Source: Octopus vulgaris
Lineage: Eukaryota
Direction of reading: 5' to 3'
Assembly: GCA_951406725.2 (NCBI GenBank)
Contig: OX597817.1
Span: forward strand, 171,740,001 to 171,804,000
Length of the DNA: 64,000 nt
Positions 13,936-61,916 of the stretch are shown one piece after another; the first letter of the stretch is position 1, and the number at the start of each line of letters is the position of its first letter. The position numbers and the translations under genes were made by a program. Under the pieces are notes generated by a model. That model saw nothing but the letters and a program-made list of their open reading frames with translations. It did no database searches and was not told the origin of the DNA.

Positions 13936-14585
13936 AGGCATGGTTGTGTGGTAAGAAGCTTGCTTCCCAAGCACATGGTTTCAGGTTCAGTCCCATTGTG
14001 TGGCACCTTGGGCAAGTGTCTTCTACTATAGCCTCAGGCTTCCCAAAACCTTGTGAGTGGATTTAGTTGAAGGAAACTGAAAAATCCCATCATATATATA
14101 TATATATAAATTAAATTAATCAAAATAAAAACATGATGCCAAGAATTCAGCGGTACATATGTTTCGGGCTTTTATTAGAAGGATTTATAACAATGCATAA
14201 TGTGTGTCTATGGCCTTCTTCAGCCGCGCACAATTACTACTTCAAGGACATGTATCACATCATAAATTCTACGTTGGGGATGCAAATCCTCACAGTCACG
14301 TACGACATAGTGGGGCACCAGCACAAAAATGAAGCGTCCATCTCGTCTTTCACTCAATGTATATATACAGGTGCTTACAATTATCAAGTACTCACCCTGG
14401 ATTTTTATATATATATATATATATATATATATATATTTGTGTGTTTATGTCTGTGTTTGACACCACCCCCATCGCTTGACAACTGATGTTGGTGTGTTTA
14501 CATCCGTGTAACCTAGCAGTTTGGCAAAAAGAGACTGATAGAATAAATACCAGGCTTACAAAGAATAAGTCCAGGGGTCGATTTC
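13936..14585 (+). mobile_element. SINE family A split by an insertion in its internal (TA)n
   Basis: Head at 13936-14092 and body at 14438-14585 match family A; unrelated sequence at 14108-14406 lies between two TA runs. Confidence 0.85.
14150..14227 (-). ncRNA. Minimal type I hammerhead ribozyme candidate
   Basis: Minus strand reads GCGG-CUGAAGA-AGGC...GCCC-GAAA-CAUAUG-UA/CCGC. Stem I GCGG:CCGC, stem II GGC:GCC with a long loop, palindromic stem III ACAUAUGU, GUA cleavage triplet. Confidence 0.75.
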
Positions 14586-16711
14586 TCTTTCTCTTTTTAA
14601 TTTGGAGTAAATTTTGACCAGACTCCAACTTTGGAGCAAGGTTGTGAAGGAAAGTATCTTGATTTAACTCTCATCCTCTAAATCTTCAGAAGGTCTCGCA
14701 GATTTTTAAAGTTCCAGATATGATATCTGGGACTATACATACTAATGTATGTATGTATGTATGTATGTATGCAAGCATACATACGCATGTACATATGTAT
14801 GTATCTTTTTCTCCCTTGCTCTCTCTCTCTCAAAAGAGATAGATAGATAGATAGATAGTTAAGCCCAGGTGTGAGCATGAACTGTTGGCTCCCCTGTGTG
14901 TATACATTTGTGAGTGTGTGTATGTGCATGCACGCATGTGTCTGTGTACATAAATGCATGCATGCATGCATGAGTGAGAGCATGTGCAAATCTCATCTCT
15001 TGTTCTGACTCACACACACACACACACACACACACACACACACACGCACACACACATAAGCACCTATCAACCAATCTCTTTACCTCACTACAGATTTCTC
15101 ATATTTCTTGGAACATGAACACTAAACAAATAAATGAAATACAGAAAAATAATAATAATAATAATAAAATAGCCAAAAAAATATATATATAAAGAAGAAA
15201 GACACACAAAAAAAAACCAACAACATACGAACATTAAAACAAGTGTCAAAGGAGAAAAAAATGTAAAAAACAAACACTAACAAATAACAAAACAAAACAA
15301 ACAACACCTAATGATATGAAATCTATCTAGCTTTGGTACTGGAATTTCACAGAAGTCTCTTGTTTTATATAAAGTTCTACCCTTCACCTGACTGTTCTGT
15401 TTTACTATTCCCTTCTCTCTCTCCTACTTTCATTTCCCCCTCTCTGTCGCTTTCTCTCATTCCCCATCTCTCTCTCTCTCTCTCTCTCTCGATATATATA
15501 TATATATATATATATATATATAACTCACATTCTTTCTCTTTGTATATGTGTGTTATACATATATTTCCATAACTTACATTCTCTCTCTCTTCACATGAAT
15601 TTAATATATGTATATCTATCTATCTATATACCATAACTTATATTGTCTCTCTCTTTTCATATTCTTTTATTCTATATATATATATATATAATATATATAT
15701 ATATATATATATATATATGCATGTATATATATATTGTGGCTCACATTCTCTTTCTATCTAGGTAGTTGTGTAATTCTACATTTGTGTCTTACTCTCACTT
15801 TTGTTCAGTCTCTCTCTCTCTCTCTCTTTCTCTCTCTCTCTTTCTCTCTCTCTCTCTCTCTCTCTCTCTTTCTCTCATCATCTTTTGGTCTTTTATTCTA
15901 GTAAAACAGCAAACAACCAAGCCCTACCTTTACTTCCCTTCGGCTCTCCCCCTTTTTTTTTCTTCTATCTCCCTTACTTGAAACACCAGGTTCTTTTTTC
16001 TCTTCCTCTCTAAACTCCTGTTGCCTTTTTATTTCATCCCCTCCATTTCATCATCTTCTATTCTCATTCAATGCTTTCATCAATACACTTTCTTATTTTC
16101 CCTGTTTCCCTGTCCCCTTCTCTAAGCTCCTGTTTTTTTTCTTCTCTTTCACCTTTGCCCCACTTGCCTTCACTCTCCACTTCATCTTACTCCTCTACTT
16201 CTCTTCCTCTCCCTCTTCCCTACTTATACTTACTGCCTCATCTCACTCTCCCAGTCCAGTATCACCAACTTCAGCACCTAGTCATTTTTTCTTCTGGGAT
16301 CCTTCATTACTGCATACTAACTCCTTTTCATTATTCCAATTGCATCACACAGAAACCTCTATACATACACACAGGCACAGGCATGGCTATTCTATTAAAA
16401 AGTTTGCCACTGTGTGGCACCTTGTAAAAATGTCTCCTACTACAGCCCCAGAACAACCAAATCCTTATGAGCAGATAAATGAGTGTGAGTTGGCATTTGT
16501 GCTCTCCAAAACTCATGAGCTACATGTAGTGATGTTGGTGTCTTCTGCTGGCTTTGTACCTTCAAAGACGTAAAATAGGAGATCCCTTTCATGAAAAACA
16601 AGTGAGGGTTATTGATGGGAAGAATATTCATTTGTAAAACAATACCTCAATAATACATTCATTTAACCAATGCCATCATAGAAAGCAGGGGTAAAAACTA
16701 ATGAACATATA

Positions 16712-17113
16712 TGTGGTTGGGTGGTAAGAAGCTTGCTTCCCAACCACATGGTTCCATGTTCAGTCCCACTGCATGGCACATTGGGCAAATGTCTTCAACT
16801 ATAGCCTCAAGCTGACCAAAGCCTTGTGAGTAGATTTGGTAGTGAGAAACTGAAAGAAGCCTGATGTATCTATCTATCTGTCTGTCTGTATGCATGTATG
16901 TATGTGTATATCTTTGTGTGTGTCTCTTTGTGCCTGTGTTTGACCCCCAATCACTGCTCTTGACAACTGGTGTTGGTTTGTTTATGTCCCTGAAACTTAG
17001 CAGTTCAGCAAACAAGAAGAGAAAGAATTAAAACTGATAGGCTTAAAAAATAAGTCCCGGGGTCGATTTGTTCGAGTAAAAATCCTTCAAGTCATGACCA
17101 AAACAAGTAAAAG
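16712..17113 (+). mobile_element. SINE family A, diverged
   Basis: Head, body and tail motifs all present. Confidence 0.85.
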
Positions 17114-18134
17114 ATTATATACATATTTATTGAAAAAAATTTATTGAATGGAGAAGGTAAAATCCAGGTTATATATACTTCCTTACTAACAGAACCTCAG
17201 AAGTATTAATTTTATTCCCATACACAGCAACTCCAATGGTGAACTCCAAAAACGAATTTTTCCAGCTTATTAAACCTTGATATGAGTAAAACTTACAACG
17301 GTCTATGTCAATAAACCACTATAGTTTCTAAAAGTTGTTTTTTTTATACTTTCTATGAACTGCTTGAAGCTTACTAACTTCCTACACCTTGAATGTTCAT
17401 TCTTATCTTTACATATATTATATATAATATTAAATATGAATAGATGTACAGCAAAATACTTTGATACTTTATTTCATATATTATTAAAAAAATATAACAA
17501 AAGTGCCTGTAATTGAATATGGGTAACATGCATGATTGTATTCACAAGGGATGGCTTTAATCTAACCACATTCAATAATCTCTACAATCACCTTTCCTTA
17601 TGGCCATCCAGCATTCCCTCTCCATCAGGTCATTCATTATTGACACCCATTATCTCTCTCTTACCATCATTCATCTTTACTCCTCTCCATAATTTTCTCT
17701 CCCTCTCTCCCTCTCAATCTATCAATGTCCCTTTCTCATATTATTTCCTCCCCTATCACTTATTGTTGAAATATTTCATTCTTTTTTCCCCCACCACATT
17801 TATCCACTGCCATTATTTTTTTTATTTTTGTTCCTATCATGCTCTTCATGCTGCACTTATCCTTACTAGCAAACAACATGTTGTTGCCATCACTGTCTTT
17901 CTTATATTACTCCCTCCTATCACACTTTCTCCCACCATTCTGTCTCTTCTTTCACTCTGTTTTTTTTTTTGTCATCGTTCTGTTTTCTATTCAGCCCCTT
18001 GAGTAAATGGTGTATTTTTGGGGTCATTTAGGAAATATGACAATCTCTTTAGTGCTGGTGTCATGATAAAATGCTCTCAGTATACTTACTAAGGTAACTG
18101 AAACTAGGAAGAGTATTTAACCACAGAAACTATG

Positions 18135-61008: not shown

Positions 61009-61212
61009 GGCGGTTAGCTGGCAGAAACTTTAGCATGCTGGGTGAAATGCTTAGCGGTATTTTGTCTGTCTTTATGTTCTGAGTTCAAATTCTGTCGAGG
61101 TTGACTTTGCCTTTCATACTTTTGGGGTCAATAAATTAAGTACCTGTTGCATACTGGGATTGATCTAATCGACTGACCCCTTCACTCCCCTTGTGCCTAG
61201 AGTAGAAAAGAA
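61009..61212 (+). mobile_element. SINE family D, full length
   Basis: Homologous to 46421-46635. Confidence 0.9.
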
Positions 61213-61711
61213 TATATATATATATATATATATATATATGCAATGTGCGTGTGTATGATCATAATCATTATTTGATGTCCATGTTCCATGTGAATACAGG
61301 TTGGAGAGACAAAAGAAAAACTAAGCCAGACTCTTTCACCAAAACCCCTCAGCAAATTCAATGTTTCCTTTTATCTTCATCATCTTCAAATGTCCATCTT
61401 CTAAGGTGGCATCAGTTGAATCGTCTAAACATGAGCTGATAGGTTTGAGAGCTGCATCATGTTCTAATATCTGCTTTGGTATGGTTTTATGGTTTGATGC
61501 CCTTCCAAATGCTAATTATTTTGCAGAGTATATTGGATGCTTTTTTTTTTTGCAGCACCAGCACCAGTGAGTTTACCATGCAGCTGGCAAGACTAAGCTG
61601 CATTTGTTAGTGCATGGGGTTACAATAGAGAGAAAAGCAGCTTAATTTTGAGCTCGATGTTATTCTTGATAAATATAATTAATCTAACCATTATATATAT
61701 ATATATATATA

Positions 61712-61916
61712 GTTAATCCAAACATGAACAATGGGAAACTACAACAACATGAGGATGTGGAACAAGTATAGTGTTATTGGACGCTCAGGAAAAGGAAAGA
61801 AAGAAGGAGGATTTAACGTTTTGAGTGGAGCTCTTCGTCAGAAACGTAGAAAAAGGAAAGGTCCAAGGAAGGGAAGATGGGGAAAGAAAATCGCCAACGA
61901 TACACATGCAGTCACA
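61712..61916 (-). mobile_element. TA-adjacent short element with decayed hammerhead (61812-61844)
   Basis: UUU-CUGACGA-A-GAG CUCCA CUC-AAAA-CGU-UA/AA; G12 lost, consistent with CpG decay; flank similar to 54906-54940. Confidence 0.62.

Follow-up and report, generated by a model that had tools for sequence, protein, structure and literature searches.

What kind of element lies behind a series of short hammerhead-like inserts, most of which sit beside (TA)n microsatellites, is the question raised by a 64,000-nt stretch of the Octopus vulgaris genome (contig OX597817.1, positions 171,740,001 to 171,804,000 of the forward strand; the window). An original prediction, made from the letters of this stretch, regarded the inserts as non-autonomous or retrozyme-like families that insert preferentially into (TA)n. 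Our analysis points to a different origin: families A (exemplar at 50597), B (54949), C (14150) and D (38262), together with an endonuclease relic at 11160 (family P), are very probably 5'-truncated 3' ends of coding Penelope-like elements (PLEs) with a type I hammerhead, and families E (43272/47788), F (61812) and G (57661) are likely to be of the same kind.

The genome assembly (2.8 Gb in 227 contigs) was searched family by family for the 40 loci most like the query, and the resulting counts are biased towards variants close to the query. Background copies from unselected samples served as a check on these query-picked counts, and a 400 kb sample, evenly spaced across the genome, was used for abundance and for descriptor searches. 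Loci are given as L numbers where they have to be told apart.

Coding sequence upstream of the hammerheads

Longer copies of families A, B, C, D and P extend upstream into PLE coding sequence, reaching the reverse transcriptase (RT) as well as the endonuclease (EN) in C, D and P and the EN part only in A and B; all of these copies are broken or partial. In family C, whose copies are young and 95–97% identical, locus L124 contains an RT frame (3489–4751) and a frame for thumb, linker and EN (4718–6094), with about 2.1 kb of low-complexity untranslated region (UTR) between the EN frame and the C hammerhead. The Atlas look-alikes of L124, all from one source, were RT, DUF8422 and HTH_animal (0.91–0.97) and GIY-YIG (0.94–0.96). 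Family A copies (L025, L026, L002) lead to an EN with a 36% match to that of L124 (E 4e-16), family D copies (L177, L279, L283, L180, L288, L293) lead to an EN of the L124 type, with three of them reaching the RT thumb, and family B copies (L058/L126, L056) likewise lead to an EN, with a CxxxxCxxC linker in L058. The Penelope GIY-YIG relic that had been proposed at 11160–11389 is a genuine PLE endonuclease C-terminus, and a relative of it has a 569-aa frame comprising RT and EN. This family P frame matches Pfam RVT_1 at E 2.7e-6, which falls short of the curated cut-off, and contains no Cys-rich linker. The suspected link to PLEs was thus borne out for A–D and P, where the suggested search for full-length RT plus GIY-YIG elements revealed coding continuity.

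The 2.1 kb 3' UTR of family C (L124:5936–8200) is full of TA, TG and CA simple repeats, and the UTRs of B and F are CA-rich. Since the C 3' UTR is so rich in simple repeats, such elements probably disseminate microsatellite-like sequence in addition to targeting it. Loci L111 and L114, about 200 kb apart, share a duplication of a family C copy with more than 2 kb of flank at 96% identity. The inverted pair at L111 was also considered as a candidate full-length C element and rejected, as it consists mostly of UTR.

TA repeats, copy structure and hammerhead cores

The copies have a fixed 3' end, an optional tail, a variable 5' end and often an inverted 5' arm (11/28 in A, 8/20 in C and 13/29 in P). 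Family medians of copy length are 189–319 nt, except for C with 663 nt, and the 130–300 bp that had been taken for the size of the elements reflects truncation. For the insertion preference, runs of (TA)4 or longer were scored at the junctions, leaving out 13 loci that were seeds, second arms or duplicates. At the 3' junction, such runs were present in 9/28 copies of A, 20/29 of B, 5/20 of C, 11/23 of D, 5/19 of E and 12/19 of F, corresponding to 25–69% in these six families compared with 4.1% of random positions, but in only 1/29 copies of P, so that the predicted preference for TA stood for A–F and failed for P. At the 5' junction, TA was found in 4/28 (A), 15/29 (B), 5/20 (C), 4/23 (D), 7/19 (F) and 1/29 (P) copies. 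TA beside the variable 5' end cannot be encoded by the element, which indicates that the target was present before the insertion. In the unselected samples, TA was touched by 8 of 16 non-P loci and by none of 7 P loci. The random-position rate is the sole reference used; an 'other-repeat' control (0/24) was discarded, as its loci (L172–L195) belong to family D and had been scored away from their ends.

TA targeting is seen in families A–D, which have the Cys-rich linker between RT and EN, and is missing in the linker-less P, a comparison of four families with one. Lacking the TA preference, the relic family P is not what drives the copies in TA. In L152 (oriented 1765–3000), a B-type, presumably Neptune copy with endonuclease forms a nested insertion within the TA run that follows an F copy at its 3' end.

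In the mechanism that we propose, the GIY-YIG endonuclease of the element would nick (TA)n and the RT would prime at the nick, likely on a short UA-rich stretch close to the RNA 3' end. The RT would usually halt after 150–700 nt, sometimes adding an inverted second arm, and the inserted copies would then decay neutrally, chiefly at CpG. Copies extend from tens of nt to more than 100 nt beyond the predicted cleavage site, indicating that the template is likely uncleaved or re-ligated RNA.

The expectation of minimal type I hammerheads with palindromic stem III was supported. Among copies spanning both strands, the canonical core CUGANGA...GAAA...UH was complete in 24/25 (C), 26/30 (P), 12/20 (F), 10/30 (A) and 4/10 (E), and most losses in these families are CpG decay. 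Families B and D, in contrast, have non-canonical cores. U6 was present in all 30 selected B copies, and none of about 27 readable background copies of B and G, judged by eye, had A6, across subfamilies that differ at N7. C4 was present in 53/64 D copies, whose subfamilies have A (21), T (17) or C (23) at N7, the sole core position that varies among them. Large lineages are thus fixed for U6 (B/G) or C4 (D). The changes A6C and U4C reduce cleavage in other hammerheads (PMC3088659, PMC7151607; these and all papers cited below are represented by parts of their text). In C and E the G10.1-C11.1 pair is lost, the stem II loops of C, D and E comprise 40–60 nt, and an unpaired base follows position 9 in B, F and P. 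Stems I–III are wholly different from family to family, but pair in 91–97% of the cells (B 204/210, C 193/200, D 568/622, F 135/140, P 253/270), and the stems of family A pair too.

Several observations weigh against the assignment to PLE 3' ends. A search of 1.5 kb of flank at 20 E and 20 F loci yielded no coding partner, nor did the fetched loci yield one for G, which was never used as a query on its own, and an intact full-length open reading frame (ORF) was found in none of the families. Pfam gave a GIY-YIG match in none of five proteins, pairwise BLAST gave poor matches of the L124 frames to the protein of L117 (E 0.21 and 0.003), a homologue search returned two matches, neither of them named, and a PDB sequence search yielded weak RT matches only (best E 0.014). 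The enrichment of TA at the 5' junction was not significant for E (2/19). The covariation that the original prediction had asked for was scarce: the stems pair, but compensatory double changes amount to just 0–2 per family. Pairing with little covariation would fit master elements under selection whose copies decay neutrally. The clade names Neptune, Nematis and Penelope/Poseidon, finally, are our assumption, guided by the linker motif (PMC8557442) and not by a tree.

Origin of the short copies

In family P, the 3' UTR consists of a tRNA-like head, (AAT)n and the hammerhead, in this order, and the whole unit is the 3' UTR of the ORF-bearing copies L117–L120 and L212. The 5' ends of copies pile up at the head (window 11060–11114, minus strand; L117–L120, L196–L225, L246–L275, L301–L330). 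With a query covering +8 to +74 of the head in a copy that bears an ORF, non-self direct arms ended between -9 and +8 in 28 of 29 cases, 17 of them between -7 and -3; in this reading, two fold-backs and three unaligned rows were judged by eye. From the truncation rate within the unit, about 16% of arms would be expected to stop at the head (P about 7e-22). With the 3' 131 nt as query, the head was reached by 12/30 copies and passed by none, and in the unselected background all five non-seed loci that reach the head end there, whereas 8/30 copies extended further when upstream bases were included in the query.

There is about an even chance that the short P copies derive from an RNA polymerase III (Pol III) transcript starting approximately 6 nt before the head and copied by PLE enzymes, which would make them a PLE-driven hammerhead SINE (short interspersed nuclear element). 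The agreement of the three samplings (28/29, 12/12 and 5/5 copies ending at the head) favours this origin, as do candidate A-box-like and B-box-like motifs in the head at tRNA spacing and the lack of a T4 run in 2/3 copies, although 22% of random 270-nt stretches are also free of TTTT. Other observations count against a separate transcript: upstream sequence is present in 3/29 loci, ARAGORN called no tRNA in any of six family P loci, and a GCCC-AC-GGGC hairpin straddles the wall at which the copies end. In L307 and L325, moreover, the direct arm ends at this wall beside an inverted ORF piece, indicating that ORF-bearing RNA, too, can break there. RNA depth steps up only 1.5–2x at the head, with 2–8x in the contigs of one run, which is weak evidence from unstranded reads of a related organism; reads mapped to family P, the only family so examined, showed neither a start nor a cleavage pile-up in this unstranded RNA-seq.

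The wall could also, with a chance a little short of even, arise on full-length PLE RNA, either because the RT stops or snaps back at the palindrome or because processing cuts the RNA at its tRNA-like fold; no separate SINE transcript would then exist. The breaks in L307 and L325, the frequency of fold-back junctions at the palindrome and the sizeable read depth across the ORF are consistent with such a stop. A structural stall should, however, sit 3' of the hairpin, and the modal end (-7 to -3) lies on the 5' side of it, past the hairpin and the whole tRNA-like fold; furthermore, 26/29 loci have no upstream sequence inside 1.5 kb. A non-autonomous origin of the tRNA-headed P unit, which the original prediction had not noticed, is plausible. 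A more far-reaching proposal, which we put forward tentatively and consider rather doubtful as a whole, is that a Penelope 3' UTR captured a tRNA-derived Pol III promoter and gave rise to a hammerhead SINE, comparable to Sm-alpha, with tens of thousands of copies and its driver in the same genome, and that, with the U6 core of the most abundant TA-targeting lineage hardly cleaving, PLE hammerheads are folds for RT binding rather than catalysts. In locus L186 (813–941), another tRNA-like head stands close before a related hammerhead and suggests a second tRNA-headed family.

For the families as a whole, the original prediction of dedicated non-autonomous elements of 130–300 bp with ends of their own, either non-LTR (long terminal repeat) retrozymes or parasites of PLEs, is improbable. 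Most copies are indeed short, the fetched loci include no coding partner for E, F or G, retrozymes are derived from PLE pseudo-LTRs in a recent preprint (bioRxiv 10.64898/2026.07.22.740005), and B copies often start near one place, which is partly an artefact of picking matches by a query of that length. However, families A–D and P run into ORFs, their 5' ends vary, and tandem units, which define retrozymes in the same preprint, were not found as hammerhead arrays in the window (among the best 150 of 158 repeats); family P loci are mostly inverted pairs with few direct duplications. We retain truncated PLE 3' ends as the explanation, and for E, F and G a non-autonomous origin may still apply. 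That the TA association merely reflects chance motif matches in a microsatellite-rich window, which has about 100 TA runs and a single site (54980) for the strict type I descriptor, has a practically negligible probability, as every motif is a member of a family for which a first-look genome search gave hundreds to thousands of candidates (533–3975 per family, G not queried alone), the type I descriptor found 15 sites in the 400 kb sample compared with 0–1 in each of ten local shuffles, and random window positions touch TA at 5.5% only.

Some of these 15 sites belong to families outside the window, and one or two are doubtful. In the 400 kb sample, the eight families account for 23 loci or 57.5 per Mb (95% interval 36–86), from which a rough total of 160,000 copies results, in line with the very many copies that had been predicted; seven of the loci are of family P, which would thus have roughly 50,000 copies. 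The window contains nine loci in 64 kb, a density that is biased by the choice of the exemplars from the window itself. At least six more type I hammerhead families, none of them in the window, were noticed in L231, L239, L331, L340, L342, L345 and L349; several have 50–80 nt between the core strands, and one is identical in L331 and L342.

Copies in the window and comparison with known systems

The family P relic of Penelope/Poseidon type occupies 10901–11389 (minus strand) and contains the endonuclease C-terminus at 11160–11389, a damaged tRNA-like head from 11114 and (AAT)n at 10996–11060; its hammerhead is deleted near 10930–10939. The family C copy (14109–14407, minus) is the 3' end of a young Nematis-type PLE between TA runs at 14092–14108 and 14406–14436, with an inverted 3' tail at 14362–14407; its hammerhead (14150–14227) has the complete canonical core and all three stems, with one substitution in stem II. 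The Nematis-type family D copy (38224–38355, plus), next to (TA)5 at 38216–38225, is truncated just 3' of the true 5' core, inside the 5' strand of stem II, so that the 3' core alone is left (38287–38308); in relatives, the 5' core CCGANGA lies further upstream, and a stem II of 9 bp closes a loop of about 60 nt. In the family E copy with inversion (43174–43371, strand mixed), the 3' half of the hammerhead is on the minus strand (43174–43287) and the 5' half on the plus strand (43307–43371), leaving no intact ribozyme, and relatives of this copy carry the intact motif. A second E fragment (47781–47858, minus) retains the 3' core only (47789–47803). The family A copy (50522–50740, plus), older and of Nematis type, is flanked by TA runs at 50493–50521 and 50737–50770 and has a hammerhead at 50597–50660 with canonical core, G-U at 10.1–11.1 and one stem I mismatch. 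The Neptune-type family B copy (54855–55034, minus), flanked by TA runs at 54829–54856 and 55035–55077, has a hammerhead at about 54946–54984 with the U6 core CUGUGGA (A6U, family-wide) at 54949. Family G, a diverged relative of B and also U6, is represented by a copy without TA run (57560–57760, ends approximate, minus) with a decayed core at 57661–57695 that has several changes. The family F copy (61712–61919, minus), with a TA run at 61692–61711 at its 3' end, has G12A in an otherwise canonical family core (61812–61844).

Motifs were found at the places where the original prediction had located them, among them 14150–14227 (minus), 50597–50660 (plus), 54949, 57661 and 61812 (minus), 43273/43311 and 47789, and only the 5' core given for 38262 was wrong. 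The type I architecture claimed for these sites is present with a complete canonical core in two of eight (14150 and 50597), the other six being altered, split or partial. That most sites abut TA is true for five of eight (14150, 38262, 50597, 54949 and 61812, with runs of at least (TA)4–5), whereas 43272 and 57661 have no adjoining run and the run at 47788 is borderline. An Rfam scan of the window gave no hammerhead family among the best 150 of 192 matches; those listed were microRNA (miRNA) models only, on TA/CA repeats.

The window, with a GC content of 35%, contains further repeats. Two similar C-terminal fragments of LINE (long interspersed nuclear element) ORFs at 10103–10807 and 51817–52356 (both plus) are presumably RTE-like, and LINE C-terminal fragments of other families lie at 26242–26583 (minus), 53514–53876 (plus) and 58102–58443 (plus). 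An (AAT)n microsatellite of 1.34 kb (447 copies) spans 24593–25932, and an AT-rich tandem repeat with a period of 51/106 bp spans 23284–23672. A near-perfect 40-bp inverted repeat at 46995–47085, apparently head-to-head SINE arms, has a miRNA-like score under the Rfam cut-offs.

It is well supported that PLE tails with hammerheads in TA repeats are an already described kind of element and that the octopus families are new members of it; the less ordinary parts are the variant cores (U6, C4) and the tRNA-headed P unit. PLEs are described as a transposable element order of an octopus, in which an old expansion stands beside some young families, in PMC13282606, whose available text is silent on hammerheads, on TA targeting and on PLE tails with a tRNA head and whose library may include these families. 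In the literature searched, we found no account of these families, of octopus PLE hammerheads or of a U6 PLE core, and no hammerhead paper with A6U among those listed, although Lunse et al. (2017) and Ferbeyre et al. (1998) may cover variants. A PLE-driven tRNA SINE was likewise not found described together with its autonomous element, in a search that did not extend to subscription journals or repeat databases.

Most minimal hammerheads are dispersed singles and probably truncated PLEs according to Cervera and de la Pena (2014; PMC4209133). The octopus families resemble the EN+ PLEs of that study in the minimal type I hammerhead near the 3' end, the long stem II, short stem I and palindromic stem III, the unpaired base after position 9 (B, F, P), the truncated singles and the inverted pairs 100–700 bp apart. 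They differ from the text of that study, which has U3-A8, in U6 (B, G), C4 (D) and the loss of G10.1-C11.1 (C, E), and from its PLEs in the 40–60-nt stem II loops of C, D and E. As the role of PLE hammerheads is termed unknown in PMC7761336, the lineages in which U6 or C4 is fixed make it possible to test directly whether cleavage is required.

The Neptune, Nematis and Naiad clades of Craig et al. (2021; PMC8557442) show the same (TA)n bias, one-arm 3' tails and inverted 5'-truncated copies, with a CX2-5CxxC linker before the endonuclease; the tails of C and D are about 70 nt long here, compared with 30–40 bp in that study. Their proposal that the Cys-rich linker directs the endonuclease to microsatellites gains a contrast of linker-bearing and linker-less families within one genome (25–69% compared with 1/29), in which P is the exception that it predicts. 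Non-LTR retrozymes (PMC7761336; bioRxiv 10.64898/2026.07.22.740005) share the type I hammerhead, the scale of 150–300 bp and a proposed PLE ancestry, but they are tandem and form circular RNA, whereas the octopus copies are 5'-truncated, lie dispersed or inverted in the genome and connect to ORFs.

If it is a true Pol III transcript, the P unit is a PLE-driven SINE. A tRNA sequence within LTRs is a parallel case (PMC10886601), and the SINE-like elements Sm-alpha/Sj-alpha of Schistosoma (PMC6765202) have a Pol III-type promoter ahead of a type I hammerhead, an arrangement that the P unit resembles. Sm-alpha/Sj-alpha often occur in tandem, their hammerheads are canonical and their driver is unnamed, whereas the P unit occurs as dispersed copies with a minimal PLE hammerhead and is identical in sequence to the 3' UTR of a PLE that bears an ORF in this genome.

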